Assembly (NCBI RefSeq): GCF_023806565.1
Contig: NZ_JAMTDV010000114.1
Span: forward strand, 6,057 to 70,056
DNA: 64,000 nucleotides
Direction of reading: 5' to 3'
Source: Accumulibacter sp.
GTDB lineage: Bacteria > Pseudomonadota > Gammaproteobacteria > Burkholderiales > Rhodocyclaceae
Shown: piece after piece, positions 7,503 to 43,034 of the stretch
Position numbering within the stretch: the first letter of the stretch is position 1
How the letters are laid out: every line of letters begins with the position of its first letter
The notes under the pieces: generated by a model
Told to the model about the DNA's origin: nothing
The model's input: the letters and a program-made list of their open reading frames with translations, nothing else
Database searches by the model: none
Program-made: the position numbers and the translations under genes

Positions 7503-7533
7503 GTCTGTCGCCGGAGTCGGTCGGATGGCAGCG

Positions 7534-7561
7534 AAGCCCGCCTCCTGGCGGGCTTTTTTAT
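7534..7561 (+). terminator. Rho-independent terminator of the mutase/pcc operon
   Basis: AAGCCCGCC-TCCT-GGCGGGCTT followed by TTTTTA, starting 32 nt after the pccA stop. Confidence 0.7.
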
Positions 7562-7794
7562 CCTGTGTGCCGACGAGCGAGCGGCTCGCAGCGAAAGCGA
7601 TTGGGCGCATGCGCCGCGCGGGTTGCAAGCCGCCGTGTACACGCTGCGGCGTGGTGCCATGGCACTTGGCGCGAGCGTCGGCGAATCGCGACGTTGCTGA
7701 CGTGCCGAACGTTGGTGTCAGCTACGCTCGATCGCGTTCGCTGGATTGCTGCTATGGCGGCGGCGCAGAGGGTGGGTCGCCTCCGGCCGGACGC

Positions 7795-8106
7795 TCAGGC
7801 CGGCCTGCCCTGGGCAGCGGCGGGGGCGGCGACGTCGTAGATCAGTTGCAGATCGTTGTCTTCTGCGAAGTGCAGCACAAACCGGTATGCCATCGGCTCG
7901 ACTTCATACAGTCGGCCGTCAACGAATACTGCCTTTTCTCCCTTGTACGTGCGCGGGCCGACGTAGGGTGAATAGCGCATCTTCTTCTCGGCACCAAAAA
8001 CCGAAAGAACACCGCAAAGCCGTTCAGCCCAGTCACTCGGCCGGAACTTTTTGCCCGTGATGGTCAGACCGACGATGATGAAAGAGGAGTGCGATGAAGT
8101 GGTCAT
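7795..8106 (-). CDS. DUF3579-family small protein
   Basis: 103 aa. FIIVGLTITGKKFRPSDWAERLCGV...EPMAYRFVLHFAEDNDLQ matches my memory of the conserved DUF3579 core (FRPSDWAERLCG). Confidence 0.7.
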   Translation of the reverse strand: MTTSSHSSFIIVGLTITGKKFRPSDWAERLCGVLSVFGAEKKMRYSPYVGPRTYKGEKAVFVDGRLYEVEPMAYRFVLHFAEDNDLQLIYDVAAPAAAQGRPA

Positions 8107-8384
8107 ATCTCGTTGGGATGATGGCGAGGAGAACCGCGAATTGCCCCCTGGGATGGTCTTTGCGCACTTGCACTTGGCGACAAGTTCGACGCGCGGATTC
8201 TAACAGAAAGTGGAAGGATATGCCGGCTTCTTGCCCAAGCCCGCAGATTCGAGTGCCGTTCAATGCTACCGAGTAATGACCGACTCGATCGGTTCGGGCT
8301 TGTCTGCGGTGAACCAGGGGGCTCATCAGTGCCGCATCTGCCGCGATCAGTGGAAGCCGGCTCGAAGGCTTGGTGTGGTCTGGT

Positions 8385-8459
8385 TGGTGGGCGATAGTGG
8401 GTTCGAACCACTGACTTCCACCGTGTGAAGGTGGCACTCTACCACTGAGTTAATCGCCC
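8385..8459 (-). tRNA. tRNA-Val (anticodon CAC), CCA encoded
   Basis: Reverse complement: GGGCGAT-TA-ACTC-AGTGGTA-GAGT-G-CCACC-TTCACAC-GGTGG-AAGTC-AGTGG-TTCGAAC-CCACT-ATCGCCC-ACCA. It folds as a full cloverleaf with T33 and A37 flanking CAC. Confidence 0.85.
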
Positions 8460-8610
8460 AATCTGTCCGATGCATCGATGAATCCGGGTGGCGGGCCGAT
8501 CGTTCGTATCGGAGAAAATGACTGCCACACGTTGACTGCCACGCTCATCTCTGAGCGTGCGGTCCACTCAGCGACCGGAACGGAGATTACATCACAAGTC
8601 GATGATCGGG

Positions 8611-9459
8611 TCAATCGACGCGACCGGGAACGACGCCATTCGCTGGCCGGACCAGCAGTATGGGCAAGGGATTGACGCCGTTGCGATGCGTGTGCCGATG
8701 GTTGCCGTCGGGATTGATCGCAGCTCCGAAGTTGGCCCAGTCGGGGTCCGGCAAGTCGGTGAATGCTTGCCGCAGGCGCTCGCCCCAGAGCGTGCGGATG
8801 GTGTTGAAATAGGCATTCTGCGGGCCAATGCTGATGTGCTGGCGCACCTGCAGCGCGCCGCTGGCGTAAATCAGAAGATCGAGCGGCATGCCCACGGAAA
8901 GGTTCGAGCGGATTGTCGAATCCATCGAAATCAATGCGCACTTGGCAGCTTCCTCGAAGCTCGTGCGCCGGGTAACGACGCGGTCGATGATAGGTTTCCC
9001 GTACTTTGACTCTCCGATCTGGAAGTAGGGGGTGTCTTCGCTGGCTTCGATGAAATTGCCCGCAGCATAGATGTTGAACAGGCGTGGCGCTTCGCCCGCG
9101 ATCTGGCCACCAAAGATGATCGACGAGTTGAACTCGATACCGAATGCTTTCAATGCCGCCGCGTCGCGCTGATACACTTCGCGTACAACCGCACCGATGT
9201 GGCGTGCCGCTTCGAAGAGGTTCGGCAGATTGCAGAGATGTTCGCCACCGTCGGCGTCGATGCGCTCGCGCAGAATATTGACCACAGACTGGCTGACCGA
9301 CAGGTTGCCGGCGGTCATCAGCACCAGCACTCGCTCGCCTGTGCGTTCGATCACCGTCATCTTGCGGAACGTATTGATGTGATCGACGCCGGCATTGGTG
9401 CGCGCATCGGACAGAAACACCAGGCCGGCATCCAGCTGCATCGCGACGCAGTAGGTCAT
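8611..9459 (-). CDS. Anbu-type proteasome beta-subunit homologue (Ntn-hydrolase 'proteasome-type protease')
   Basis: Starts MTYCVAMQLDAGLVFLSDARTN. After Met removal this gives Thr1, Asp17 and Lys32, matching the proteasome Thr1/Asp17/Lys33 triad with no propeptide. It is the last gene of an ATP-grasp/alpha-E operon. Confidence 0.85.
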   Translation of the reverse strand: MTYCVAMQLDAGLVFLSDARTNAGVDHINTFRKMTVIERTGERVLVLMTAGNLSVSQSVVNILRERIDADGGEHLCNLPNLFEAARHIGAVVREVYQRDAAALKAFGIEFNSSIIFGGQIAGEAPRLFNIYAAGNFIEASEDTPYFQIGESKYGKPIIDRVVTRRTSFEEAAKCALISMDSTIRSNLSVGMPLDLLIYASGALQVRQHISIGPQNAYFNTIRTLWGERLRQAFTDLPDPDWANFGAAINPDGNHRHTHRNGVNPLPILLVRPANGVVPGRVD

Positions 9460-9529
9460 GGTTGCCCCGCCGGAGTTGACAGCATGGTTGGTGGCGTTTG
9501 CACAATCGCTGGAGATGTCATCGAGTGAG

Positions 9530-10465
9530 TCAACCCGGTATCAGGAAGTCGCGGCTGATTCCATCACCGATCTCGAAGATGCGGTCCATGAAATCGGTCA
9601 GATACTCGTGCAGTCCGCCGGCTAGCACGTCGTCGATCCGCGCGAAGTGCAGGCGCGCGTGCAGGACTCCGGCCTGCCGTTCGGTTTCGGCAGACGCGCC
9701 GTTGGCGATCAATTGCAGCATGCGCACGATGCCGTCGGCACAGGAATGCAGCGACCGTGGCAGATTCATGTTGAGGATCAGCAACTCAGCCACGCGACCC
9801 GGGGTGATCGCGTCGCGATATACCTTGCGATAGACTTGGAATGCCGAAAGCGAACGAAGCAGGGCTCCCCAACGATAGAAGTCGCTGACCTCCTCGTCGT
9901 CGTTCTGTCGCAGGATGTGGTATTGCATGTCGAGAATTCGCGCCGTATTGTCTCCGCGCTCGAGCAGTCCTCCGAGGCGGATGAAATGCAGAGCGTCGTC
10001 CTTGAGCATGGTCCCGAAGGTCACGCCGCGCGTTACCGCCGAACGAAGCTTGACCCAGTCGAAGAATTCGCTGACGCCGCGTGCCAGAATGTGCTCGAAG
10101 TTCTGCTGCCGCAATTCGATCCAGGTGGCGTTCACGCTTTCCCACATTTCCGCAGTCATTGTGCCGCGCACGGCATGTGCATTTTCGCGTGCCGCTCGCA
10201 GGCAACTGTAGATCGACGAAGGGTTGGACGCGTCGGAAACCATGAAACGCAGGACGTTTTCGACATTCACGGCCGGGTATTCCCGGGCAAAGGCCGCCTC
10301 CAGACTGTTGAGGGCGAGAATCGCGCGCCAGTTCTCGTTCTGCGCCGCAAGCGATTGCGGTACCAGCGACATCTGGTAGGAAACATCGAGCAGACGCGCG
10401 AGGTTTTCGGCACGCTCGGTGTAACGCGCCATCCAGTAAAGATGGTCGGCTGTACGGCTCAACAT
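9530..10465 (-). CDS. Alpha-E domain protein
   Basis: MLSRTADHLYWMARYTERAENLARLLDVSY is the characteristic alpha-E N-terminus. It is 19 nt downstream of the ATP-grasp gene. Confidence 0.85.
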   Translation of the reverse strand: MLSRTADHLYWMARYTERAENLARLLDVSYQMSLVPQSLAAQNENWRAILALNSLEAAFAREYPAVNVENVLRFMVSDASNPSSIYSCLRAARENAHAVRGTMTAEMWESVNATWIELRQQNFEHILARGVSEFFDWVKLRSAVTRGVTFGTMLKDDALHFIRLGGLLERGDNTARILDMQYHILRQNDDEEVSDFYRWGALLRSLSAFQVYRKVYRDAITPGRVAELLILNMNLPRSLHSCADGIVRMLQLIANGASAETERQAGVLHARLHFARIDDVLAGGLHEYLTDFMDRIFEIGDGISRDFLIPG

Positions 10466-10484
10466 TTGAAATCTCCCTGCATCT

Positions 10485-11903
10485 CTAGTTTTCCAACACC
10501 CAGGTATCCTTGGTTCCGCCGCCCTGTGACGAGTTCACCACCAGTGAGCCCTCGCGCAGCGCGACGCGCGTCAATCCGCCCGGTACCATGCCGATACCCC
10601 GCTTGCCGGAGAGCACGAAAGGGCGCAGGTCGAGATGGCGCGGAGCGATTCCCGACTCGACGAAAGTCGGGCAGTTGGACAGCGCCAGCGTCGGCTGTGC
10701 GATGTACTTCTCCGGCGAGGCGACGATCCGCGTCCGAAACTGCTCGATCTCGGCCCTGGTCGATGCCGGTCCCACCAGCATCCCGTAACCGCCGGCTCCA
10801 TGCACCTCCTTGACGACGAGTTCCGGCAGGTGCGCCAGTACGTAGCTAAGGTCCTCGGGTTTGCGCAACATCCAGGTCGGGACATTGTTGAGCTTCGGCT
10901 CTTCACCAAGGTAAAAGCGGATCATTTCCGGGACGTAGGGATAAATCGACTTGTCGTCGGCGACGCCGGTGCCAATGGCGTTGGCGAGCGTAACGTGGCC
11001 GGCGCGATAGGCGGCAAGCAGTCCCGGGACGCCGAGCATCGAGTCCTTGTTGAAAACGAGGGGGTCGAGAAAGTCGTCATCGAGCCGGCGGTAGATCACA
11101 TCGACCCGTTGTGGCCCCTGCGTGGTACGCATGAACACCGTTTCGTCGCGGACGAACAGATCCCGGCCCTCTACCAATTCGACGCCCATCTGCTGTGCCA
11201 GAAAAGTGTGCTCGAAGTACGCGCTGTTGTAGGCGCCCGGCGTCAGCAGCACGACTGTCGGATCGCTCACCCCCTTCGGTGCGACGCTGCGCAGGTTCTC
11301 GAACAGCATGTCGGGGTAGTGCTGGACCGGCGCGATCATTTGCCGCGAAAAGAGTTCGGGAAAGAGCCGCATCATCATCTTGCGGTCCTCGATCATGTAC
11401 GAGACGCCGGACGGGACGCGCAGATTGTCTTCCAGAACGTACGATTCGCCGGCCCCGGCGCGGACGATATCGACGCCGGCGATATGCGCGTAAATCCCGG
11501 AAGGCACGTCGACGCCGATCATCTCGGGCCGAAACTGCGCGTTGTGCAACACCTGCTCCGGTGGCAGGCGACCGCTCCTGAGGATCTCCTGCTCATGGTA
11601 GATGTCGTGCAGGAAGGCGTTGAGCGCTTTCACCCGCTGCCATAGTCCGGCCTGCAGCGCCTGCCACTCGGCCGCGGGAATGATGCGTGGAATGATGTCG
11701 AACGGGATCAGTCGTTCGGTGCCCGACTCCTCGCCATAGACGGCGAAGGTGATGCCGACGCGGTGAAATGCCGTATCCGCCTCGGTCCGCTTGCGTTCCA
11801 GGCGGTCGGCCGGCATCGCTGCCAGCCACTCGGCAAAAGTGCGGTAATGCGGCCGCAGCACACCGGCCGAATCGTACATCTCGTTATAGAAATGTGTACT
11901 CAT
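10485..11903 (-). CDS. Circularly permuted type-2 ATP-grasp protein (amidoligase-like)
   Basis: ORF 10485..11987. I moved the start to ATG 11903 ([20 protein letters not shown]...), which is preceded by GGTGAGGA. It is homologous over its length to the N-terminal half of ORF 18785..21346. Confidence 0.88.
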
Positions 11904-11937
11904 GGTCCTCACCATCAGTCTAGGTTTCAAAACGGCA

Positions 11938-11953
11938 AGCAGAAAGCGTGCCA
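11938..11953 (-). promoter_or_regulatory. Sigma54 (-24/-12) promoter for the ATP-grasp/alpha-E/Anbu operon
   Basis: The minus strand reads TGGCACG-CTTT-CTGCT, against the consensus TGGCACG-N4-TTGCW. The predicted transcription start is near 11927, about 24 nt upstream of ATG 11903. Confidence 0.55.
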
Positions 11954-12035
11954 CGCCATCGACTGGATCAAGGCCGAGCAAGCACAAGTCGGGTGATCAC
12001 TTTGCTGCCGGAAATGGTGCGATCTGCTGCCAGAA

Positions 12036-12052
12036 TGCACGCCATTGGTGCA
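12036..12052. promoter_or_regulatory. NtrC-type enhancer (UAS) palindrome
   Basis: TGCACGCCATTGGTGCA, against the consensus TGCACC-N5-GGTGCA (11 of 12 half-site positions). It is centred about 117 bp upstream of the predicted sigma54 start. A degenerate second site, TGCTGCCGGAAATGGTGCG, lies at 12003-12021, about 31 bp away. Confidence 0.45.
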
Positions 12053-12230
12053 TTTGCCTCGCGTTGCGAACGGTTCCGAAGAAGCAGAATACCTGTCGAG
12101 AGTCGGCACGAAGCTTGCTTGGAAACCAGGGGCAGCCGCAAGCGAAGACCGCTCTTCGTTGCGGTCGCGCTCGCTCGCCGGGATGGCTTTCCCAGCCAGG
12201 CACGTGCGGGTATCGTTGAAGAGGCGAAAC

Positions 12231-12569
12231 ATGAAGACACCGAAGATTCTTCCCTGGCTGGCACGTCGGACCGGAGTGAGCGATGAACGTGCCGAAGACC
12301 TGTGGCGCGCTGCCTGTCAGCAGGCGACAGCACTTACCGGCGAGCGGGACGGCCCGTGCTATTGGGGTGCAGCAGTGCAGACCCTGCTGGATCTGCTCGA
12401 AGCCGAGCGCTGGAAAGCCGGCACGGTGTTTGTGTGGCCCTGGCTCTTGCTGCCATACGGCATCGAGCAGTGGTCCTTGCTTGCCAGGCGCTGGCTGGCG
12501 CCCAGCGCATTGTTGCGTGGGCGGCCGGCCGCGGATTGCTGCCCGATGCAGGTCGGCGGGGCGCGATGA
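12231..12569 (+). CDS. Hypothetical Trp-rich 112-aa protein, translationally coupled to glnD
   Basis: ATG 12231 is preceded by GAGG at a 6-nt spacing. Third codon positions are mostly G/C. Its stop overlaps the glnD start (gcgATGAgg, 12566-12569). I recognise no family. Confidence 0.45.
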
Positions 12570-15154
12570 GGCCGACGCCTCACGGCGCTGCGCGTACCAA
12601 GAGTTGGCTGCAGGACGGGCAGAGGAAGATTCGTGAGGATTTCCTCGCCGACGGTGACGCAAAGCGCCTGCTGCGCAATCGCTGTTCCCTGATCGACGAG
12701 ATTCTCTGCGCCCTCTGGAGCGAGCTGGGATTGCCGGATTCGCTCGCGCTGATCGCTGTTGGCGGCTATGGCCGCGGCGAACTGTACCCCTCCTCGGACG
12801 TCGATCTGCTGATCCTGCTGCCGGAACAACCCGGCCACGCGTTGGCCGCGCAGCTCGAAGGGCTGGTGTGTGCATTCTGGGACATCGGACTCGAAACCGG
12901 TCATAGCGTGCGTACCATCGAGCAATGTCTGGAGGAGGCCGCTGGCGACATCACGGTGCAGACGGCAATGATCGAGGCGCGCCGGCTGGCTGGCAACGTC
13001 GAACTGTTCGAGGGTTTCTCGCGCATCTTCCAGCAGAGTGTCGATGCTCGCGCCTTCTTCCAGACGAAGAAGATGGAGCAGGAAGATCGCCATCAGCGCT
13101 TCAGCGACACGCCTTACAGTCTGGAAGCGAACTGCAAGGAAGGTCCGGGTGGGCTGCGCGACCTGCAGCTCATCCTGTGGATTGCGCAGGCAGCGGGCTA
13201 TGGCAGGTGCTGGAACGACCTCGAACGACACGGCTTCATCACCGTGGAAGAGGCGGCGCTTCTCGACCACAGCGAAGCCTTCCTGCGCCGCTTGCGCACG
13301 CAACTGCACCTGCACGTCGGTCGCCGGGAAGATCGCCTGCTGTTCGATTACCAGACGGCGTTGGCGGATAAGCTGGGATTTTCCGCCAGCGCCGAACGCC
13401 GCTCCAGTGAGCAAATGATGCAGCACTACTATCGGGTGGCGAAAACCATCACGCAGATCACCGGAATCCTTCTGCAGAACATCGGCGAGGCGTTGTTCCC
13501 GCCTCCGGACGAGCTTCCGCAAGCGATCAACGATCGTTTCCAGAATGCGCACGAGTTCCTCGACGTGGTAGACGAAAACGTGTTTCAGCGGACACCGTCC
13601 GCGCTGCTCGAGGCCTTTCTGCTCCTCCAGCAACATCCGGAGTTGAAAGGCATGAGTGCCCGCACGCAGCGCGCCCTGTGGCGCGCACGCAATCTGATCG
13701 ACGACGACTTCCGCCACGATCCGGGCAATCGCGCACGTTTTCTGGCAATTCTCAAACAGGGGAACCGCCTGGTCCAGGAATTCCGGCGGATGAACCAGCT
13801 TGGCGTTCTCGGTCGCTATCTGCCCAATTTCGGGCGCATCGTCGGCCAGATGCAGCATGACCTCTTTCACGTCTATACCGTCGACCAGCACATCCTGCAG
13901 GTGATCCGCCGCCTGCGTCGCTTCACGATGGAGGAGTTCGCTCACGAATATCCTTTCTGCAGCAGGCTGATCAGCGACCTCGGCAATCCCTGGATTCTCT
14001 ATATCGCCGCCCTGTTTCACGACATTGCCAAAGGCCGTGGCGGCGATCACTCGGAACTCGGGGCGGGCGACGCGCGCAGCTTTTGCGAGGTGCACGGTCT
14101 CGCCGATGAAGACACCGAACTGATCGTCTGGCTCGTTCGCCAGCACCTCCTGATGTCCCGGATCGCGCAGAAGGAGGATATCTCCGATCCTGGCGTTGTC
14201 GCCCGATTTGCCAAGGTCGTTGGCAACGAGCGCCGTCTGATCGCGCTTTATCTGTTGACCGTCGCCGACATTCGCGGGACCAGTCCGAAAGTTTGGAATG
14301 CATGGAAGGGGCAACTGCTCGAACAACTGTTCACGGCGACCCGACGCTTCCTGCTGTCTGGCGAAGATACGTTGATGACCCACGGTGTCATCGCCCAGCG
14401 TCAGCAAGAGGCGCTTCGGTTGATGCGCTACCTGGCTCTTCCGGAGAAGGCGCACGAAGAACTATGGCAGCAACTCGACACGGTGTACTTTCTACGTCAG
14501 TCGGCAGAGGAAATCGCCTGGCACGCCCGCGCCGTGCACGACTGCGTCGAGAGCGAGCGGCCCGTGGTCCGGGCGCGCCTCAATCCGCTCGGTGCGGGAC
14601 TCGAAGTGATGGTTTACACGCGCGATCAGGAAGACCTGTTCGTGCGCATGGTCGGCTTTTTCAGCCGTGCCGGCTACAGCATCGTCGACGCCAAGATCCA
14701 TACCACACGGCATGGCTATGCACTGGACACGTTCATGCTGCTCGACGTTTCCGGTCGCGACAGCGACCGAGCCATGATCAGCTATATCGAACACGAGCTT
14801 GCCGAACGGCTGCTCCACCCGGCACCGCCGGAAGTCCCGGCCAACGGACGAATCTCGCGTCAGGTCAGGCATTTCCCGATACAACCGCTGGTCAGCATTC
14901 AGCCCCTGGTCAGTCTGGAAGCCGACGAAACCGGCACATTGTTCGTATTGACCGTGGTCGCCGCCGACCGTCCCGGTCTGCTGTTCCTTGTTGCCAACGA
15001 ACTGGCCCGGCATGATGCCAATCTGCACACCGCCAAGATCGCCACCCTGGGCGAACGGGTCGAGGATACCTTTCTGATCAGTGGTGACCACCTGGACGAG
15101 AGCGCCGGGCGAGTCAAACTGGAAACCGATCTGCTGAAACAGCTGCAAGCCTGA
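12566..15154 (+). CDS. glnD: [Protein-PII] uridylyltransferase / uridylyl-removing enzyme GlnD
   Basis: ORF 12302..15154. I moved the start to ATG 12566 ([26 protein letters not shown]...), giving about 862 aa. It has the nucleotidyltransferase motif [17 protein letters not shown], the HD-domain segment [16 protein letters not shown], and two C-terminal ACT-like regions. Confidence 0.92.
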
Positions 15155-15313
15155 ACGTCCGTGTACGAGTCTTCGCGAGGAGTCCAGAAATGGGATACGC
15201 AAACAAGCAGCGTTCCGGATCGGCGGCGGGTGGTCTCGTCGGGAATCGCTGATTCGCGCAATTTCCCCTATGGTCGCCATCGCGACTGGCCGGGCGGAAT
15301 GGCTTCGTCGTTA

Positions 15314-15329
15314 TGGCGCGGTTCTTGCT
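15314..15329 (+). promoter_or_regulatory. Sigma54 (-24/-12) promoter for the large transglutaminase operon
   Basis: TGGCGCG-GTTC-TTGCT, against the consensus TGGCACG-N4-TTGCW. The predicted start is near 15340. GGAG lies at 15355-15358, 6 nt before GTG 15365. Confidence 0.5.
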
Positions 15330-15364
15330 CTTCCAATTTCTGATTTTTTGCTCCGGAGCTGACT

Positions 15365-18300
15365 GTGTCCATTCATGTTGCCCTCAATCACCTTACCCGT
15401 TATCGCTACGATCGTCTGGTCAATCTTTCGCCACAGGTTGTCCGCCTGCGCCCGGCACCTCATTCGCGAACGCCGATACTCAGCTACTCGCTGAAAATCA
15501 CCCCGGCGCAGCATTTCATCAATTGGCAGCAGGATCCGCAGGCGAATTACCTGGCTCGTCTGGTGTTTCCGGAAAAGACGCGCGAGTTTTGCATCGAAGT
15601 GGATCTGGTCGCCAACGTCTCGGTAATCAATCCTTTCGATTTCTTTCCCGAGCCGTACGCGACCACCTTTCCTTTCTCGTACGAAGCATGGCAGCAGGAG
15701 GAGCTCGAACCGTATCTGCATTGCCTGCCGCTGACGGCACAGGTGCGCCAGTTTCTGGCGACGATTCCGCGCGAGCCGCGGGGGAGCGTCGACTTTCTCG
15801 TCGACCTCAACCGGCAGGTGCAAAGCGCGGTGAGTTACGTAATCCGCCTCGAACCGGGCGTGCAGACGCCCGAAGAAACGCTCACGCTGGGCCGGGGCTC
15901 GTGCCGGGATTCCGCCTGGCTGCTGGTGCAGTTGTTGCGACATCTGGGGCTCGCTGCGCGCTTCGTTTCCGGTTACCTGATTCAGCTCGTTCCCGACGTG
16001 AAATCGCTGGACGGACCTTCGGGAACCGATCACGACTTCACCGACCTGCACGCCTGGTGCGAAGTCTACCTGCCAGGCGCTGGCTGGATCGGCCTCGACC
16101 CCACCTCGGGCCTCTTCGCCGGCGAAGGTCACATACCACTGGCCTGCTCGCCGCAACCGTCGTCGGCGGCGCCAATCACCGGCTTCACCGAAAAGTGCGA
16201 ATGCGAGTTCGAGCATCACATGAAGATCGAACGCGTCTGGGAGGCGCCGCGGGTCACCAAACCTTATGACGAGGAGCAGTGGGCGGCGATCGAAGCCATT
16301 GGGCACCGGATCGACGCGGATCTGAGCAGCGGCGACGTCCGTCTGACGATGGGGGGCGAGCCGACCTTCGTCTCGATCGACGATCATGACGGGGCCGAAT
16401 GGAACGTCGACGCCCTCGGTCCGACCAAGCGGGCGCGGGCGGCGGACCTCTTTCAACGCCTGCGCGCGAAGTACGCGCCGCAGGGGCTGCAGCACTTCGG
16501 CCAGGGCAAATGGTATCCCGGCGAGCAGTTGCCGCGCTGGTCGCTGAACTGCTTCTGGCGGCGCGACGGTCAGCCGGTGTGGAAGAATCCGGGGCTGTAT
16601 GCCGACGAAACCTGCAATTACGGAGCCGACGAGGCGCTCGCCGGGCACTTTCTGCGCAGTCTCGCCGAACGGCTGGCAATCGACCCGGGGTATGTCTTTC
16701 CGGCCTTCGAAGACGTCTATTACTATCTCTGGCGCGAACACCGCCTGCCGATCAACGTCGACCCCTTGAACTCGCGACTCGATGATCCGATCGAACGCGA
16801 GCGACTGGTGAAGATCTTTCGCCAGGGGCTGGACACGGTGGCCGGCCATGTGCTGCCGCTGCGACGTCACGCGCAGGGCGGCTGGCAGAGTGGCAAGTGG
16901 TTCCTGCGAGCCGGCCGCTGCCATCTGATTCCGGGCGATTCTCCGATCGGCTATCGCCTGCCGCTCGACTCGCAGCCTTGGGTGGCCAAGACCGACTATC
17001 CGTACATCCACACGCCCGATCCGACGCAGTACTTTCCGCCGTTGCCCGACTATGCCGAAATCCGCGCCCAAAGTGCGGTCAGCCGCAGTCAGAGTGCGAG
17101 CGACGAAGCCGCAGCGGTGACCGGCGAACACTTTGCCGAACGGGCGCTCGAGCGAGTCGCCGAGTCGCTGGCGCACGCGGCCGACGGTTCGCGCGAAGGG
17201 CTGCCAGCGGATGCAGCGGCGGCGGTCATCCGCACCTCCCTGTCGGCACAGGCGCGTGACGGAGTTCTGTACCTCTTCATGCCGCCAACGGAGACACTGG
17301 ACGACTATCTGGAACTGGTCGCCGCCGTCGAGGCGACCGCCGAAGCACTGACCACGCCGGTTATCATCGAAGGCTACGAGCCGCCGTCCGACCCTCGCCT
17401 GACCAACTTCCGTGTCACGCCTGATCCCGGGGTGATCGAAGTCAATATTCAGCCGTCGGCCAGTTGGGATGAACTCGTCGAACGCACTACGCACCTCTAT
17501 GAAGCGGCGCGCCTGTCGCGCCTGTGTACCGAGAAATTCATGCTCGACGGTCGACATACCGGTACCGGCGGCGGCAACCATTTCGTGTTTGGTGGCGCCA
17601 CCGTTCTCGACTCACCTTTCCTTCGCCGTCCCGACCTGCTGCGCAGCCTGATCAGTTACTGGCACAACCACCCGTCGCTTTCGTACCTCTTTTCCGGCCT
17701 GTTCATCGGTCCGACGAGCCAGTCGCCACGGGTAGACGAGGCGCGCAACGACTCGGTATACGAGCTCGAGATCGCCTTCGGCCAGTTTCCGCCGGTCGGC
17801 GACGCTGAAGAGTACGTCGCACCATGGATCATCGACCGTGTGCTGCGCAACCTGTTGATCGACTCCACCGGCAACACGCACCGCGCCGAGTTCTGCATCG
17901 ACAAGCTCTATTCGCCCGAGGGCCCGAGCGGGCGCCTCGGGCTGCTCGAAATGCGCGCCTTCGAAATGCCGCCGCACGCGCGCATGTCGCTGGCACAGCA
18001 GCTTCTGCTGCGCGCGCTGATCGCGCGCTTCTGGCGGACCCCTTACGCGCCCGAGCGACTGGTCCGCTGGGGCACAGAGCTGCACGACCGCTTCATGCTG
18101 CCGTATTTCGTGCAGCAGGATTTCGACGACGTCATCAGCGAATTGCGCGCTGCCGGTTATCCCCTCGAAAGCGCGTGGTTCGCGCCGCATTTCGAATTCC
18201 GCTTTCCCCTGCACGGCCGCATCGCAGTGAAAGGTATCGAGCTGGAACTGCGGCATGCGCTCGAACCCTGGCATGTGATGGGCGAGCAGGCAACGGCGGG

Positions 18301-18742
18301 AGCGACCGTGCGCTACGTCGACTCCTCGCTCGAACGCGTACAGATCAGGGTCACGGGCATGGCCAGCGATCGCTACGTGGTGGGTTGCAATGGTTGTGCG
18401 CTGCCGATGCGCTCGACCGGCAAGGTTGGCGAGTTTGTCGCCGGCGTGCGCTACCGCGCCTGGCATCCGCCGTCGGCGCTGCATCCGACGATCGGCGTCC
18501 ATGTGCCGCTGGTCTTCGACCTGGTCGATAGCTGGATGAAACGCTCTCTCGGCGGTTGCCAGTATCACGTCGAGCATCCCGGTGGGCGCAACCCCGATCG
18601 CTATCCGGTCAATGCCAACGAGGCGGAAGGTCGTCGGCTGGCACGCTTCACACCGTTCGGTCACACCCCCGGCGCGATCGACTTGCAGCCACCGCCGGCG
18701 AATGCCGGCTTCCCGTTTACGTTAGACTTGCGGCGACCCTGA
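15365..18742 (+). CDS. Large transglutaminase-family protein (N-terminal bacterial transglutaminase region, Cys-His-Asp core, long DUF2126-like C-terminal region)
   Basis: 1125 aa with a GTG start. The N-terminus MSIHVALNHLTRYRYDR is typical. Catalytic motifs: GSCRDSAWLL, DLHAWCEVY, GLDPTSG. Confidence 0.9.
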   Translation: MSIHVALNHLTRYRYDRLVNLSPQVVRLRPAPHSRTPILSYSLKITPAQHFINWQQDPQANYLARLVFPEKTREFCIEVDLVANVSVINPFDFFPEPYATTFPFSYEAWQQEELEPYLHCLPLTAQVRQFLATIPREPRGSVDFLVDLNRQVQSAVSYVIRLEPGVQTPEETLTLGRGSCRDSAWLLVQLLRHLGLAARFVSGYLIQLVPDVKSLDGPSGTDHDFTDLHAWCEVYLPGAGWIGLDPTSGLFAGEGHIPLACSPQPSSAAPITGFTEKCECEFEHHMKIERVWEAPRVTKPYDEEQWAAIEAIGHRIDADLSSGDVRLTMGGEPTFVSIDDHDGAEWNVDALGPTKRARAADLFQRLRAKYAPQGLQHFGQGKWYPGEQLPRWSLNCFWRRDGQPVWKNPGLYADETCNYGADEALAGHFLRSLAERLAIDPGYVFPAFEDVYYYLWREHRLPINVDPLNSRLDDPIERERLVKIFRQGLDTVAGHVLPLRRHAQGGWQSGKWFLRAGRCHLIPGDSPIGYRLPLDSQPWVAKTDYPYIHTPDPTQYFPPLPDYAEIRAQSAVSRSQSASDEAAAVTGEHFAERALERVAESLAHAADGSREGLPADAAAAVIRTSLSAQARDGVLYLFMPPTETLDDYLELVAAVEATAEALTTPVIIEGYEPPSDPRLTNFRVTPDPGVIEVNIQPSASWDELVERTTHLYEAARLSRLCTEKFMLDGRHTGTGGGNHFVFGGATVLDSPFLRRPDLLRSLISYWHNHPSLSYLFSGLFIGPTSQSPRVDEARNDSVYELEIAFGQFPPVGDAEEYVAPWIIDRVLRNLLIDSTGNTHRAEFCIDKLYSPEGPSGRLGLLEMRAFEMPPHARMSLAQQLLLRALIARFWRTPYAPERLVRWGTELHDRFMLPYFVQQDFDDVISELRAAGYPLESAWFAPHFEFRFPLHGRIAVKGIELELRHALEPWHVMGEQATAGATVRYVDSSLERVQIRVTGMASDRYVVGCNGCALPMRSTGKVGEFVAGVRYRAWHPPSALHPTIGVHVPLVFDLVDSWMKRSLGGCQYHVEHPGGRNPDRYPVNANEAEGRRLARFTPFGHTPGAIDLQPPPANAGFPFTLDLRRP

Positions 18743-18750
18743 AACCACTC

Positions 18751-18774
18751 GGCGCGGGAGCATGTTCCCGCGCC
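18751..18774 (+). other. Intra-operon GC-rich hairpin between the large transglutaminase gene and the ATP-grasp fusion gene
   Basis: GGCGCGGGA-GCATGT-TCCCGCGCC: a 9-bp stem with no U-tract. It sits in the 42-nt gap before ATG 18785. Confidence 0.35.
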
Positions 18775-18784
18775 CGCTTGCTTC

Positions 18785-21346
18785 ATGCCGCAATCGCTGC
18801 TCGCGAACTATCCGAGGAAGACCGACCGTTTCGACGAAATGCTCGCCGAAGATGGGAGCGTTCGTCCGTCCTGGAAACCGTTTTTCGCTCACCTCGATGT
18901 GGTGACCCCCGAGCAGATGCGGCACCGGCTCGACTTCGTTCGCCGCAGCATCCTCGAGAACGGCGTCACCTACAACGTCTACGCCGACCCGAAGGGCGCC
19001 GACCGACCGTGGGAACTCGACCCCTTGCCGCTGATCCTCTCTTCTGCCGAATGGCAGGAGCTGGCTGGCGCGGTGATGCAGCGCGCGCGCCTGCTCAACG
19101 CGGTGCTCCAGGATCTCTACGGCCCACAGGATCTGCTCCGCGACGGCAGTCTGCCGCCCGCCCTGGTTTTCGGCCACAACAATTTTCTCTGGCCGTGCCA
19201 GGGGGTCCGTCCCCCCGGTGATACCTACCTGCACCTCTACGCCGCCGACCTCGCGCGTTCGCCCGACGGTCGCTGGTGGGTGATCGCCGACCGCACGCAA
19301 GGGCCGTCCGGTGCGGGTTACGCGCTGGAAAACCGGACCATCGTCGCGCGCGTTTTTCCAGAGCAATTTCGCGACCTGCACGTGCAGCATCTGGCGTTCT
19401 TCTTTCGGGAGCTGCAGGACAGTCTGGCCTGCTGGGCGCCGCGCGGTGAAGATCCACCGCTGACCGTACTGCTCACTCCAGGTCCCTACAACGAGACCTA
19501 CTTCGAGCATGCTTACCTCGCGCGCTACCTCGGTTTCCCGCTGGTCGAGGGGCAGGATCTGACGGTGCGCAGCGATTGTGTCTACCTGCGGACACTGAGC
19601 GGCTTGCGCCGCGTGCATGCGATTCTGCGCCGGCTCGACGACGACTACTGTGACCCGCTCGAACTGCGCGGCGATTCTGCGCTCGGCGTTCCCGGTCTCC
19701 TGCAGGCGGTTCGTGCGGGCAATGTCCTGGTTGCCAACGCGCTCGGCAGCGGCCTGATCGAATCGGCGGCGCTGCCGGGCTTCCTCCCCGGTATCTGCAA
19801 GAGAATGCTCGGCGAGCCGCTGGCGATGCCATCGGTTGCTACCTGGTGGTGCGGCGAGCAGGCCGCGCTTGAGTTTACCATCGAGCATCTCGACCAACTG
19901 GTGATCAAGGGTTCGTACCCCTCGCAGCGTTTCGATCCGATCTTTGGCAACGAGCTCGCCGGTGGTAGACGCCAGGAAATGATCGATCGCCTGCGCGCCC
20001 GCCCGCAAGCCTATGTCGCCCAGGAACTGGTCAACTTTTCGGAAGCCCCGACCTGGAGCACGAAGCATGGGCGGCAACTCGTGCCACGCGGCGTCGGCCT
20101 GCGTGTTTTCGTTGCCGCCACTCCGACAGGTCACGTGGTGATGCCGGGCGGCTTGACGCGCGTCTCGGCAGCTTCGAATGCGCGAGTGATCTCGATGCAG
20201 CGTGGTGGCTCGAGCAAGGACACCTGGGTGCTCACTACCGACGCGGCGGTCAATACCTTCAGCCTGCTCAAACCGTCGGTCGGGAAGGCCGATCTCGTCC
20301 GCGGCGGTCGCAATCTGTCGTCGCGCGTGGTGGAAAACCTGTACTGGTTCGGCCGGTACGCAGAACGCTGCGACAAGACGTCCCGCCTGCTGCGCGTCGC
20401 CCTTTCGCGTCTCGTCGACGCCGGTGCCGACACGCTGCCGGCGCTGATTTCGGCTATCGATCTATGCCGTGTCCTGCAGCTCCTGGTTACCGCCGAGGGC
20501 GAAACCAACGGCTCCCCCAAGGGCAAGGGGGGCGCCTCCGGGTTGCCGCGTGAGACGCTGATTCTCTCCGCCATTTGCGGTGCGGACGCAAACGACGGCT
20601 TGGCCGGCGACCTTCGCCGCCTGTTGTGGGTGGCCACCCAGGTACGCGAGCGATTCTCGCTCGACAACTGGCACGCGATCAATCGCCTGCAGCACCAGTT
20701 GCAGCAGTACTGCGCGGCGGTGCGCGAAAACGCGAATCCGGAGTTGGGGGAGGCGCTCGCCTTTCTCGATCAGGTACTCCTTGCATCATCGTCGCTGGCG
20801 GGTTTCGCCATGGATAACATGACCCGCGACGACGGCTGGCGTTTTCTGATCATCGGCCGACGGATCGAGCGACTGGTGTTCCTCGCCAACGCCGTCTCGG
20901 GTTTTCTGCGCCTCGAATCGACGCGCGCTCCGGGCAGTCTCGAATGGCTGCTCGAACTCACCGACAGCATCATCACCTATCGCTCGCGCTACATGATCCA
21001 GCCGCAGGTGTTGCCGACGCTCGACCTGATCGTTTTCGACGAGGGCAACCCGCATTCGGTTGCGTTCCAACTGCAAATCCTCGTTCGTTACCTCGACAAC
21101 CTTACGCGCCTGCTCGGTGGACCACGCGACGACGCGTTGCCGCAGGCACTCTCGCGTCTGCAAGGCTTCGACCTCGCCCGCTTCGAGGGACAGAGCTTCC
21201 GCGAATGCCGAATCTGCGATCCGTGCATCGCACTCGCCAGCCTGCTCGGCGAGATTTCCATCGCTGCGGCGACGCTCTCGGATCGCCTGGCGATGCGCTA
21301 TTTCAGTCATGTCGGCGACGTCAGCCGACAAACCTTTACTTCCTGA
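18785..21346 (+). CDS. Fusion protein: circularly permuted type-2 ATP-grasp plus alpha-E domain
   Basis: 853 aa. The N-terminal half parallels the 472-aa ATP-grasp protein at 10485..11903 (for example AEWQELAGAVMQRARLLNAVLQDLYG against [26 protein letters not shown]). The C-terminal half contains SSRVVENLYWFGRYAERCDKTSRLLRV, the alpha-E signature. Confidence 0.9.
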   Translation: MPQSLLANYPRKTDRFDEMLAEDGSVRPSWKPFFAHLDVVTPEQMRHRLDFVRRSILENGVTYNVYADPKGADRPWELDPLPLILSSAEWQELAGAVMQRARLLNAVLQDLYGPQDLLRDGSLPPALVFGHNNFLWPCQGVRPPGDTYLHLYAADLARSPDGRWWVIADRTQGPSGAGYALENRTIVARVFPEQFRDLHVQHLAFFFRELQDSLACWAPRGEDPPLTVLLTPGPYNETYFEHAYLARYLGFPLVEGQDLTVRSDCVYLRTLSGLRRVHAILRRLDDDYCDPLELRGDSALGVPGLLQAVRAGNVLVANALGSGLIESAALPGFLPGICKRMLGEPLAMPSVATWWCGEQAALEFTIEHLDQLVIKGSYPSQRFDPIFGNELAGGRRQEMIDRLRARPQAYVAQELVNFSEAPTWSTKHGRQLVPRGVGLRVFVAATPTGHVVMPGGLTRVSAASNARVISMQRGGSSKDTWVLTTDAAVNTFSLLKPSVGKADLVRGGRNLSSRVVENLYWFGRYAERCDKTSRLLRVALSRLVDAGADTLPALISAIDLCRVLQLLVTAEGETNGSPKGKGGASGLPRETLILSAICGADANDGLAGDLRRLLWVATQVRERFSLDNWHAINRLQHQLQQYCAAVRENANPELGEALAFLDQVLLASSSLAGFAMDNMTRDDGWRFLIIGRRIERLVFLANAVSGFLRLESTRAPGSLEWLLELTDSIITYRSRYMIQPQVLPTLDLIVFDEGNPHSVAFQLQILVRYLDNLTRLLGGPRDDALPQALSRLQGFDLARFEGQSFRECRICDPCIALASLLGEISIAAATLSDRLAMRYFSHVGDVSRQTFTS

Positions 21347-21351
21347 TCGCC

Positions 21352-22269
21352 GTGAGTCCGTCCATCGCCCGCTATCACATCGTTCACGAGACGACGTACA
21401 GCTACGAAAGTCCGGTGTCGCTATCGCGGCAATTGCTGCACCTGACGCCGCGTACTTGCGCGTGGCAGCGTTGCCTCGGGCACCGGATCACGGTTGCGCC
21501 AGAGGCGAGCGCGGGACGCGAGCGTCTCGACAGTTTCGGCAATCCGGTGACCGAACTGGCGATCGAGTTTCCACATGAGAGTCTCAGCGTTCGCGCCGAA
21601 GGCACCATCGAGGTGCTGCCACACTTGCCTTCCGAGCATCTGGACAGTGCCTCGCCGGCGTGGGAAATCGTACGCGACGCGCTGACCTACGGAGCTCGTC
21701 CGGTGCTGCTAGACGCCAGTTGTTTTCAGTTCGAATCACCCTATGTGCGCGTCAAGCACGAATTTGCCGCTTATGCGAAGGCCTGCTTTCCCAGCGGCCG
21801 GCCGCTGCTGGACGCAGTGCATGCACTGATGAGCCGCATTCACAGCGAGTTCGAATTCGACCCCGAGGCAACCACGGTCGCCACTCCGGTGCTCACGGTG
21901 CTTGCCGAAAGACGTGGCGTCTGTCAGGACTTCGCGCACCTGATGCTTTCCTGCCTGCGGTCGCAAGGACTCGCCGCGCGCTACGTCAGTGGCTATCTGC
22001 TCACCCACCCGCCACCCGGGCGACCGCGAATGGTCGGCGCCGATGCTTCGCACGCCTGGGTATCGGTGTATTGCCCGGAGCGCGAAGGCGGTCGCTGGGT
22101 GGACTTCGACCCGACCAACAACCTGCTGCCCGATACGCAGCACATCACTCTGGCCTGGGGACGCGATTTCGCCGACGTTTCGCCACTGCGCGGGGTCATT
22201 CTCGGTGGCGACGCGCATGAACTCGCGGTGGCGGTGACGGTCACCCCGGTCACAACCGCCGGCACCTAG
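21352..22269 (+). CDS. Transglutaminase-family protein (small form, about 305 aa)
   Basis: ORF 20944..22269. I moved the start to GTG 21352, 5 nt after the upstream stop (VSPSIARYHIVHETTYSYESPV, a typical N-terminal domain). Catalytic motifs: GVCQDFAHLM, SHAWVSVY, DFDPTNN. Confidence 0.88.
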   Translation: MSPSIARYHIVHETTYSYESPVSLSRQLLHLTPRTCAWQRCLGHRITVAPEASAGRERLDSFGNPVTELAIEFPHESLSVRAEGTIEVLPHLPSEHLDSASPAWEIVRDALTYGARPVLLDASCFQFESPYVRVKHEFAAYAKACFPSGRPLLDAVHALMSRIHSEFEFDPEATTVATPVLTVLAERRGVCQDFAHLMLSCLRSQGLAARYVSGYLLTHPPPGRPRMVGADASHAWVSVYCPEREGGRWVDFDPTNNLLPDTQHITLAWGRDFADVSPLRGVILGGDAHELAVAVTVTPVTTAGT

Positions 22270-22284
22270 GTACGACGTGCCCGC

Positions 22285-23916
22285 TCAGGGCGATGGCGGC
22301 GGCGGCACGTCCGGTTCCGCTGGCGCCGCGTACCATTGTTCGCGCGGCACGACGACGTTGTTGCTGGGCTGTACGACGAAGTGCGGCGACATGATCTGCA
22401 CGCCGTAAGTATTGAACTGATCCTGGATGTTGGCGTGCAGCGCGGAGAGCACCGGTACGCGCTCCAGGGGCTGGTCCATGTACGCGAACAGCTCGTACTC
22501 GACGTACCAGTCGCCCAGGCTGCGCTGGAAAACGAAGGGCTTGGGAGTAACCCGCAAGCCGGGAGTCTGCTCGGCGGCGGCGATCAGCATGGCGTGCACC
22601 TGGCGCCACGGCGTATCGTAGCCGATCGTCACCTTGGTGGACACCAGCGTGCCGCGGGCACCTGCGAGTCGCGAGTAGTTCTTGATCGGGTTGCCGACCA
22701 GAACCGCGTTCGGGATCGTCACCTCTTCATTGCGCATGTTGATGACCTTGGTCGATAGCGCGCCAACTTCGCTGACCACACCGACGTTCTGGCCGATATC
22801 GACAAAGTCGCCTACCGACAGGGCGCGTGAATAGACCAATACCAGGCCGCTCATCAACTGATTGACGATTCCTGCCGAACCGAGCGTCAGCATGAAGCCG
22901 AACATCACCGACAGACCCTTGAATGCGTCGCTGTCGGACATCGGAATGAACGGATAGGCGATGGCGAATCCCAGGCCCCAGACGAGTATGGAGACAATTC
23001 GGTGGGTCGCGGTAACCGTCTCCGGATGCAGGCCGGGCACCTGCACGCGGCCTTCCTTCGCGGCGCGGAAGAAATTGCCGAGTGCATCATTGAAGGCCTT
23101 GGTCAGAAAGAGGATGATCAAGGCGGTGCTCAGTGCCGGCATGGCCTCGATCAGACCCGTCCCGATCATGTAGAGCACGCCGAACAGAAAATCGGTGAGG
23201 CGTTCGCCAAGCGCCTCGGTGAGCGGAAAGCGTGCCAGAACGTAGGTCAGCCAGAGGTACGCGACGGTCAACCAGAGGAAACCCATCACCAGTTGCGCAA
23301 TCCGCTGTACCAGCAGCCACCAGTGACGCGCCCAGCCGAGCCTGCCCACGTTGCGTTCGGCGGCGATGACCTCTTCCAGGTGGTGGACCATCAGCGCGGT
23401 GGCGCGCCGAATGAGCCAGAACAGGGTCAGCGCGATCATGGTCGCGAGTACCGACAGCCCGATTCCCGTCACCAGGACGATCGGGCGCCGCTGCTCCGCA
23501 GCCGCGTGCAGGGCGGCGGAGAGCACGCTCGCCGCACGCTGGGCGACTTCTTCGAGCGAAGCTTTCTCCTCGGGATCGAGGTCGCCTTCGACGACGTTGA
23601 ACAGCACGAACTCGCCGATGTGCAAACCGATGCCACGCGTCGTACCGACGATGAACGGCGTTTGCTCGATCGCCTGCGTCATCCGGTCAGACGGCAGGCT
23701 GTCGATGCGTTCCCAGGCTCGCCGCACGCGATGCTCCGGCGATGCGCCGATGAAGCTTGCCCGGAAAGTGAAGATCGGCCGAAAGTGGTAGCGCAGAGTC
23801 GCTTCCGGTGGTTTCGCGGCATCGGCCGCAAGCGCCGGAAGCATGCCGAGAAACAGGCAACTTGCCAGCCACAGCAGTGCCTTGGACGATCGAGAGGACA
23901 GAGCGGTCAGGATCAT
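22285..23916 (-). CDS. MscS-family mechanosensitive channel with a signal peptide and an N-terminal periplasmic extension
   Basis: ORF 22285..24339. I moved the start to ATG 23916 (MILTALSSRSSKALLWLASCLFLGMLPALAADA). It has multiple TM helices and an MscS beta-domain motif (VGDFVDIGQNVGVVSEVGALSTKV...TIPN). Confidence 0.85.
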   Translation of the reverse strand: MILTALSSRSSKALLWLASCLFLGMLPALAADAAKPPEATLRYHFRPIFTFRASFIGASPEHRVRRAWERIDSLPSDRMTQAIEQTPFIVGTTRGIGLHIGEFVLFNVVEGDLDPEEKASLEEVAQRAASVLSAALHAAAEQRRPIVLVTGIGLSVLATMIALTLFWLIRRATALMVHHLEEVIAAERNVGRLGWARHWWLLVQRIAQLVMGFLWLTVAYLWLTYVLARFPLTEALGERLTDFLFGVLYMIGTGLIEAMPALSTALIILFLTKAFNDALGNFFRAAKEGRVQVPGLHPETVTATHRIVSILVWGLGFAIAYPFIPMSDSDAFKGLSVMFGFMLTLGSAGIVNQLMSGLVLVYSRALSVGDFVDIGQNVGVVSEVGALSTKVINMRNEEVTIPNAVLVGNPIKNYSRLAGARGTLVSTKVTIGYDTPWRQVHAMLIAAAEQTPGLRVTPKPFVFQRSLGDWYVEYELFAYMDQPLERVPVLSALHANIQDQFNTYGVQIMSPHFVVQPSNNVVVPREQWYAAPAEPDVPPPPSP

Positions 23917-31354: not shown

Positions 31355-31426
31355 TTGTAACCACTTTGCCAGGGCTCTTCAGTGCCGCCGGCAGCCGGTT
31401 CCGCTCGATCACGCGAAGATAAGGCA

Positions 31427-42823: not shown

Positions 42824-43034
42824 GGATTCGTTCCGTCGGAAAGGATGGCTCGGGAAAGGGTGAATTGCGGACGAGCATATTACAACCATCGCTCGCGTGC
42901 TTGTAGCCCGGGGACCGCTTTTCTCGGTCTACGAATTCGAGCCGTTCCCGGTCACGGTAATGATGCGTCTTTCGCCAATGCTAAAATGACTGGCCTGAAA
43001 AGCACTCTTCGCCGTAAGGTCGAAAAGAAACCCT

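Follow-up and report, generated by a model that had tools for sequence, protein, structure and literature searches.

The stretch of DNA analysed here (the window, W; 64,000 nucleotides of the Accumulibacter sp. contig NZ_JAMTDV010000114.1) raises the question why two operons of the amidoligase/peptidase type are located on either side of glnD, the gene of the [protein-PII] uridylyltransferase / uridylyl-removing enzyme (12566..15154, plus strand). On one side, module A (11903-8611, minus strand) encodes a circularly permuted ATP-grasp ligase, an alpha-E protein and the proteasome-like hydrolase Anbu. On the other side, module B (15365-22269, plus strand) encodes a large protein with a transglutaminase-like (TGase) and a DUF2126 domain, an ATP-grasp-alpha-E fusion and a small TGase. 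All genes named in an earlier description made from the letters alone (the sequence-only reading) are present at essentially these coordinates, and a small open reading frame (ORF) between the Anbu operon and glnD (12231-12569) had been overlooked. In that description the operons flank glnD divergently; the two are indeed divergent from each other, but module B lies in tandem with glnD on the same strand, after a gap of 210 nucleotides (nt). On balance, the locus is probably one composite NtrC/sigma54-induced amidoligase/peptidase system of two modules, which would remobilise nitrogen from proteins or peptides. The NtrC/sigma54 part of this mechanism, predicted from motifs and from related systems, is likely, and the biochemical part of ligation and cleavage, drawn from family membership, is proposed only tentatively.

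The first line of evidence is that the two modules are found joined in genomes where glnD does not lie between them. Loci centred on Anbu were gathered from a metagenome scan and eight context look-ups; here and below, L-numbers denote comparison loci from other genomes or contigs. Co-directional six-gene clusters are found in L104, L114, L117 and L118, with partial ones in L099 and L101, and divergent clusters with the layout of the window in L115 (124-nt intergenic region) and L098. In the metagenome-assembled genomes (MAGs) of Burkholderiales that carry such superclusters (L104, L114, L115, L117, L118, L098) the six genes are the same as in the window and the Anbu module likewise has no TGase gene; their modules abut, 97-300 nt apart, whereas 3.4 kb with the small ORF and glnD separate those of the window. 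Propionivibrio L122 has the DUF2126 operon followed by the ATP-grasp and alpha-E genes. The two operons are thus modules of one recurrent supercluster of Betaproteobacteria, and the Anbu module has a tendency to lose its TGase there.

In the canonical Anbu operon, consisting of ATP-grasp (COG2308), alpha-E (COG2307), transglutaminase (COG1305) and Anbu genes, e.g., Pseudomonas putida PP_2688-2685 and the operons of P. aeruginosa and Yersinia bercovieri, the transglutaminase gene is placed between alpha-E and Anbu (PMC5666114, PMC6376114, PMC3235984). Module A resembles it in its three families, gene order, Anbu active-site residues and sigma54-type promoter. It differs in the missing TGase gene, since only 70 nt separate alpha-E from Anbu (9530/9459), in its pairing with a DUF2126 operon, and in a tail of about 40 amino acids on Anbu. 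The TGase gene is present at this position in L100, L102, L103, L106-L108, L110, L111, L116 and L119-L121; among these, L100, L102/103, L106/107, L108, L110, L111, L116, L119 and L121 are stand-alone Anbu operons. At the level of loci with usable flanks, a DUF2126 gene lies within 5.1 kb of 11 out of 15 TGase-less Anbu operons and of one out of 10 with a TGase (Fisher p=0.004).

Related Anbu proteins, in chains of at least 80% identity, are found both with and without an operon TGase. In addition, flanking synteny ties L119 (TGase present) to L115 (absent), and L120 (present) to L117 and L114 (absent), and because close relatives thus occur in both states within shared synteny, the loss looks recent and repeated. 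L120 (6746-18139) is a seven-gene co-directional cluster that retains the module-A TGase beside the DUF2126 operon, and looks like an evolutionary intermediate preceding the loss. Since the modules have repeatedly been joined and the TGase of the Anbu module tends to be lost, it is argued that the two sets work as one pathway. That module A shares the transglutaminases of module B is regarded as a lead with some support and not as an established result. Some DUF2126 operons come with additional small transglutaminase-like genes, divergent in Propionivibrio L082/L083 (8843-9727, minus strand) and inserted in L115 (2915-3757, minus strand); thus, the TGase copy number in these systems is fluid.

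The second line of evidence comes from the putative promoters. For sigma54 the motif TGGCAC-N5-TTGCW was searched with one mismatch allowed, and for NtrC the palindrome TGCACC-N5-GGTGCA. The 64-kb window contains only five sigma54-type matches, three of which sit in the two intergenic regions beside glnD. The one of module A, TGGCACGCTTTCTGCT (11938..11953, minus strand; one mismatch), is placed 34 nt before the ATP-grasp ATG, and that of module B, TGGCGCGGTTCTTGCT (15314..15329, plus strand; one mismatch), 35 nt before the DUF2126 gene. Both have the -24 GG and -12 GC elements at the proper spacing. The sigma54 motif that the sequence-only reading placed before each operon was recovered, at distances conserved across genera. 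The module A site has the same distance in L002 and L003 and lies at 35 nt in Propionivibrio L122. Elements nearly identical to that of module B are found in Propionivibrio (L082 and L122) and Dechloromonas (L081), again at 35 nt, and further from the start, at 57-61 nt, in L098 and L115. Motif positions are therefore kept across Accumulibacter, Propionivibrio and Dechloromonas. Sites within 100 nt of the start codon precede module A in eight of 13 lineages (binomial p ~1e-11) and module B at six of 10 loci (p ~7e-9), against a background chance of 0.018 for at least one site per 100-nt window.

A putative NtrC-type palindrome, TGCACGCCATTGGTGCA (12036..12052; one mismatch), is found 149-150 nt before the ATP-grasp ATG. 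It has the same position in L002, where the match is perfect, and in L003, and in L001 it is displaced together with the sigma54 site of module A. In the window, 83 bp separate the palindrome from the leftward sigma54 site and 52 bp from a rightward, sigma54-like one, CGGCACGAAGCTTGCT (12104..12119, plus strand; one mismatch). This last site, the third of the matches beside glnD, precedes the small ORF and glnD by 111 nt. In the alignment of this upstream intergenic region from four genomes, a sigma54-like block (xGCAy-N5-yTTGCT) at 111-170 nt before the small ORF is the sole conserved block. Transcription of glnD itself may accordingly be driven by sigma54 in Accumulibacter. A sigma54-driven glnD would be, to our knowledge, unusual.

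In the case of module B, the DUF2126 operons of Dechloromonas and Propionivibrio have NtrC-like palindromes in front of them. In W and L001-L005 no such site was found before the DUF2126 gene with up to three mismatches, except for one weak match in L002. The operon of the window thus differs from other DUF2126 operons both in this respect and in its position directly downstream of glnD. No terminator-like site was found in the 210-nt gap between glnD and module B, which, together with the NtrC sites lost in Accumulibacter and kept in the sister genera, makes read-through from glnD into module B plausible.

Nitrogen control of both operon types is not new, since both are published NtrC/sigma54 targets, in P. 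putida and Burkholderia cenocepacia. The canonical Anbu operon of Pseudomonas has a documented induction by nitrogen limitation; in P. putida, PP_2685-2688 is among the most strongly induced genes and was assigned to NtrBC (PMC3235984, note added in proof; PMC7801951). Module B resembles the DUF2126 operon I35_5080-83 / BCAM1233-36 of B. cenocepacia in gene content, order and sigma54 promoter. The NtrC/sigma54 dependence of that operon was shown experimentally: the expression of I35_5082 and I35_5083, of a cluster described as "large transglutaminase-like", drops in an ntrC mutant, by log2 9.4 and 6.0, and depends on sigma54 (PMC5491218). In marine metagenomes, the abundance of these domains co-varies with that of urea-metabolism domains (PMC3597751). 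The nitrogen scavenging proposed here also has a precedent, in the form of proteolysis combined with ammonia released by the transglutaminase (PMC6376114).

The small ORF, of 112 amino acids, is on the plus strand and its stop codon overlaps the glnD ATG (ATGA). The ORF and an ATGA or GTGA overlap with the glnD start are kept in L001, L003 and L005, thus in four genomes including that of the window, and the orthologues differ mostly at third codon positions (220 differences, as compared with 145 at first and 114 at second positions). The true start of glnD is most likely the ATG at 12566. The small-ORF family comprises about 160 clusters at E<1e-3, with proteins of 100-130 amino acids; no Pfam match was obtained, and a hidden Markov model (HMM) search upstream of glnD at the other 76 glnD loci retrieved none beyond L001, L003 and L005. 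An ORF at 11997-12875 (minus strand) that runs over the glnD start was rejected as spurious, being arginine-rich and antisense to the conserved small ORF. GlnD itself scores 1313.5 bits on the NCBIfam equivalog PRK03059 (cut-off 1010) and has the nucleotidyltransferase-HD-ACT architecture, with Pfam domains GlnD_UR_UTase, HD, ACT and NTP_transf_2.

Whether glnD belongs to the system was examined in a survey of 80 glnD loci, one genome per species, 49 of which have adequate flanks on both sides. The sequence-only reading had asked how often the arrangement recurs in related genomes and had named its absence there as evidence against the idea, and this is largely what was found. Either operon is beside glnD as in the window at five loci (L001-L005), all of them Accumulibacter-type with GlnD at least 72% identical; the GlnD of the window is 72-82% identical to that of Accumulibacter MAGs. 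In L001, L002 and L003 glnD is preceded by the ATP-grasp/alpha-E(-Anbu) operon and followed by the DUF2126 operon, with Anbu missing in L001 and L002. L005 has only the DUF2126 operon beside glnD, and L004 only the fusion gene and the small TGase, the DUF2126 gene being lost. Neither operon is present at 74 of the 80 loci, including the more distant "Accumulibacter" L006 and Propionivibrio L008; Dechloromonas too has no such juxtaposition. Outside the Accumulibacter loci, L038, from an unrelated Burkholderiales MAG, carries a TGase-less ATP-grasp/alpha-E/Anbu operon (10001-15814) immediately downstream of glnD and convergent with it, with no DUF2126 gene in its flanks of 6.8-12.6 kb. The glnD link is therefore lineage-specific, belonging to one Accumulibacter subclade.

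Two explanations of this adjacency were weighed. According to the first, for which the chances are not far from even, it is a neutral rearrangement in which two modules of the Ntr regulon landed beside glnD in one ancestor. The lineage-restricted distribution is in agreement with this, and so is the mobility of both modules. Three Accumulibacter contigs (L087, L089 and L091, including material from enhanced biological phosphorus removal sludge) have ATP-grasp/alpha-E/Anbu genes with neither glnD nor DUF2126 within 5-10 kb, and the intact three-gene DUF2126 operons of Dechloromonas and Propionivibrio are located in unrelated neighbourhoods. Moreover, L001-L003, L085 and L093 have a citrate synthase gene (e.g., L003, 7851-9146, minus strand) with the ATP-grasp operon on one side of it and the small ORF/glnD on the other, and this gene is missing from the window. 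Owing to its absence, no more than 52 bp lie between the NtrC site of the Anbu operon and the sigma54-like site of glnD in the window. A neutral origin fits less well with the tandem of glnD and DUF2126, which is retained in W, L001, L002, L003, L005, L085 and L093 (gaps of 53-210 nt) despite reshuffled flanks, with the second, independent adjacency in L038, and with the loss of NtrC sites being specific to the tandem arrangement.

The same observations speak for the second explanation, functional wiring. Here a single NtrC/sigma54-driven transcription unit would run from the small ORF through glnD into the DUF2126 operon, so that the glutamine sensor would be induced along with the ligase/peptidase system in a positive feedback or feed-forward loop, and the enzymes may even act on Ntr signalling proteins. 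The tandem is kept while the surrounding genes differ, no terminator-like site follows glnD, the NtrC sites of module B are lost only where this module follows glnD, the sigma54-like block before the small ORF and glnD is conserved, and Anbu has come beside glnD independently in L038. Nevertheless, such wiring is considered unlikely, being limited to one subclade and missing from 74 of the 80 loci. The DUF2126 gene was lost in L004 and Anbu in L001 and L002, the genes of L038 are convergent, which makes co-transcription impossible, and the -24 GG of the sigma54-like site is imperfect in half of the genomes. In our view, the adjacency follows from common membership of the Ntr regulon in a single lineage, and the mechanism does not in general depend on it. 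Thus, of the nitrogen-controlled module centred on glnD that had been suggested earlier, nitrogen control is likely, by virtue of the conserved motifs, the palindrome and the published transcriptomics, and glnD as its organising centre is not supported.

Under the composite two-module system that we prefer, a two-gene unit, with the 112-amino-acid ORF translationally coupled to glnD, would sit between the divergent modules. At low glutamine, GlnD would uridylylate PII, upon which NtrB would phosphorylate NtrC. Phosphorylated NtrC would bind the palindrome at 12036-12052 and activate sigma54 RNA polymerase at 11938-11953 for the transcription of module A, and probably also activate the sigma54-like site at 12104-12119 for that of the small ORF and glnD. 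Transcripts of module B would come from its ancestral sigma54 promoter (15314-15329), from read-through of glnD, or from both. Together with alpha-E, the two kinds of ATP-dependent carboxylate-amine ligase would join an amino acid or a short peptide to a substrate that is itself a protein or peptide, and the TGase-fold enzymes with their Cys-His-Asp triad, together with the Thr1 hydrolase Anbu, would then cleave or deamidate (iso)peptide or amide bonds. Module A, having no TGase of its own, presumably would use those of module B. The net effect would be the remobilisation of nitrogen from proteins or peptides during starvation.

Several points weigh against this reading. With purified Anbu, neither peptidase activity nor a stable complex with the other proteins of its operon was seen (PMC6376114, PMC5666114). 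Promoters and enhancer alike are predicted from motif matches only; among Accumulibacter loci a clear sigma54 site of module B is found just in W and L003, and three of six genomes (L001, L002 and L005) have an imperfect -24 GG in the sigma54-like site that precedes the small ORF and glnD. The link between TGase loss and adjacency of the modules is non-significant when independent lineages are counted (p=0.22) and its numbers are small, with L038 and the Accumulibacter contigs L087, L089 and L091 as the exceptions to the pattern.

Another explanation is that the substrates are small molecules. In this case, starvation-induced ligation resembling gamma-glutamylation, followed by hydrolysis, would catabolise or recycle amines, polyamines or short peptides, by analogy with gamma-glutamyl-polyamine pathways or with glutathionylspermidine synthetase/amidase. 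The closest solved relative of the ATP-grasp proteins, PDB 3N6X, was deposited as a "putative glutathionylspermidine synthase"; purified Anbu does not cleave proteasome substrates; the co-variation with urea-metabolism domains (PMC3597751) would fit; and unexpected conjugates of small molecules are among the products that related ATP-grasp enzymes can form (bioRxiv 10.64898/2026.04.15.718621). On the contrary, the loci examined share no conserved transporter, oxidase or dehydrogenase genes beside the cluster, Anbu assembles like a self-compartmentalising protease (PMC5666114), and the Mycobacterium tuberculosis proteins Rv2411c and Rv2567, used in the same preprint only as negative candidates, did not make the one metabolite tested (bioRxiv 10.64898/2026.04.15.718621). 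Small-molecule recycling along these lines seems doubtful. As for the ligase chemistry in general, only the release of phosphate from ATP was reported for the Yersinia ATP-grasp orthologue (PMC6376114).

A comparison can also be made with pupylation and its proteasome (the glutamine-synthetase-like ligases PafA/Dop and the 20S proteasome), in which an ATP-dependent amidoligase also stands beside a proteasome-family hydrolase. This analogy was also drawn when a tagging system was predicted in the literature. The locus differs from pupylation in having no gene for a Pup-like tag or an AAA+ unfoldase, and the ligase families are different. Unlike the 20S proteasome, Anbu forms an open split ring with no demonstrated protease activity. 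The most far-reaching version would place the small ORF, glnD and the DUF2126 operon on one transcript, with an enhancer shared with the Anbu operon and a six-enzyme tag-and-cleave pathway with nitrogen-signalling or assimilation proteins among its targets; it is regarded as highly unlikely. If true, it would constitute a bacterial, glutamine-controlled analogue of tag-dependent proteasomal turnover.

That the operons are decaying relics in this genome is very improbable. Relatives have lost Anbu (L001 and L002), the DUF2126 gene (L004) or all of module A (L004 and L005), and module A has no TGase of its own. Against decay, the six ORFs are full length with respect to the Pfam models, with intact catalytic residues, 80-94% identity to orthologues and conserved promoters. 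The profile-HMM check placed all six proteins, through Pfam and PDB matches, in the families to which they had been assigned from the letters. The catalytic residues described there are likewise in place, namely Thr1, Asp17 and Lys32 of Anbu and the Cys-His-Asp triad of both TGase domains as compared with 3ISR and 6G49. The term "paralogous" used for the two operons holds only in a distant sense, with identities of 36%, 25% and 27% between the counterparts of modules A and B.

In module A, the first gene encodes the circularly permuted ATP-grasp ligase of 472 amino acids (10485..11903, minus strand; PF14403 and PF04174, E 2e-168), and its ATG at 11903 agrees with the N-termini of homologues. 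The alpha-E protein of 311 amino acids (9530..10465, minus strand) matches PF04168 over positions 1-294 of 294 (E 1.9e-96), and its Glu-Arg motifs E17-R18 and E169-R170 are invariant across 40 homologues. Its AlphaFold2 model is all-helical, with a predicted local distance difference test score (pLDDT) of 83.8; a fold search with this model against PDB gave no significant match (best E 0.44, every template modelling score <0.35).

Anbu, an N-terminal nucleophile hydrolase of 282 amino acids, is the product of the last gene (8611..9459, minus strand). It was identified through solved Anbu structures, with matches to 5LOY, 5NYW, 5LOX, 5NYJ and 5NYF over residues 2-241 (E 1e-94 to 1e-72) in a PDB search, and its Pfam Proteasome match is weak. 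The N-terminus, MTYCVAMQLDAGLVFLSDARTNAGVDHINTFRK (M-T-Y-C), has Thr1 directly behind the initiator Met, and Thr1, Asp17 and Lys32 (T2, D18 and K33 in ORF numbering) are invariant in an alignment of 10 Anbu sequences. The C-terminal tail of about 40 residues (8611-8733) extends past the region aligned to the solved structures. Tails of similar length are common in betaproteobacterial homologues (proteins of 286-294 amino acids), and their sequence is poorly conserved.

In module B, the large protein of 1125 amino acids (15365..18742, plus strand; PF08379, PF01841 and PF09899) has an N-terminal transglutaminase-like and a C-terminal DUF2126 domain. The match to PF09899 (DUF2126) amounts to 1327.8 bits over positions 1-826 of 826, and the Cys-His-Asp triad of the TGase domain is in register with 3ISR and 6G49. 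In an AlphaFold2 model of low confidence (pLDDT 61.9) the fold of the N-terminal domain resembles 3ISR (E 3e-8), and only the TGase domain gave a match. Sequence and profile searches of PDB with the DUF2126 domain, for which a fold like that of glutamine synthetase or gamma-glutamylcysteine ligase would be expected, returned no match. Since the model is of such confidence and matched in the TGase domain only, the prediction of DUF2126 as an amidoligase rests on the description in Pfam. A literature search for "DUF2126" found no papers. The operon Rv2566-Rv2569c of M. tuberculosis is presumably of the DUF2126 type as well.

The second gene of module B encodes the fusion of a circularly permuted ATP-grasp with alpha-E, of 853 amino acids (18785..21346, plus strand; PF14403, PF04174 and PF04168). 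Its ATP-grasp part matches the family models with E 5e-153, and residues 12-483 match PDB 3N6X with E 3e-94. The small transglutaminase-like protein of 305 amino acids (21352..22269, plus strand; PF08379 and PF01841) starts at the GTG at 21352 and not further upstream. Its Cys (RRGVCQDF), His (SHAWVSVY) and Asp (VDFDPT) align with those of 3ISR and 6G49.

Anbu and the enzymes associated with it are found widely and respond to nitrogen starvation with strong induction, and we know of no substrate or activity established for them since their description in 2008-2009. The function of Anbu was still described as unknown in 2021 (PMC8665760). Published reconstitutions used only the four proteins of the Anbu operon, and the joined modules make the proteins of the DUF2126 operon candidates for further partners. 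Accumulibacter is a key organism of biological phosphorus removal, for which the locus adds candidate members of the Ntr regulon and possibly a sigma54-controlled glnD.

As for the wider neighbourhood, a tRNA-Val(CAC) gene (8385-8459, minus strand) is found directly after the stop codon of Anbu, followed by a DUF3579 gene (7795-8106, minus strand); the same DUF3579 gene comes after alpha-E in L002, a locus without Anbu. Two ORFs considered as additional genes of the operon, orf134 (8033-8437) and orf148 (7525-7971), were rejected, as their hits in other species represent the tRNA-Val and the DUF3579 gene in other frames. An Rfam scan of positions 7000-23500 gave the tRNA as its sole match. Within 45 kb of glnD, there are also glnE (glutamine synthetase adenylyltransferase; 31382-34165, plus strand), relA/spoT (38406-40631, plus strand), a divergent ppk1-ppx pair (40703-44567) and the gene of a CYTH-CHAD protein (54831-56306, plus strand). 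This part of the window is dense in genes of nutrient status and polyphosphate, in an organism that accumulates polyphosphate.

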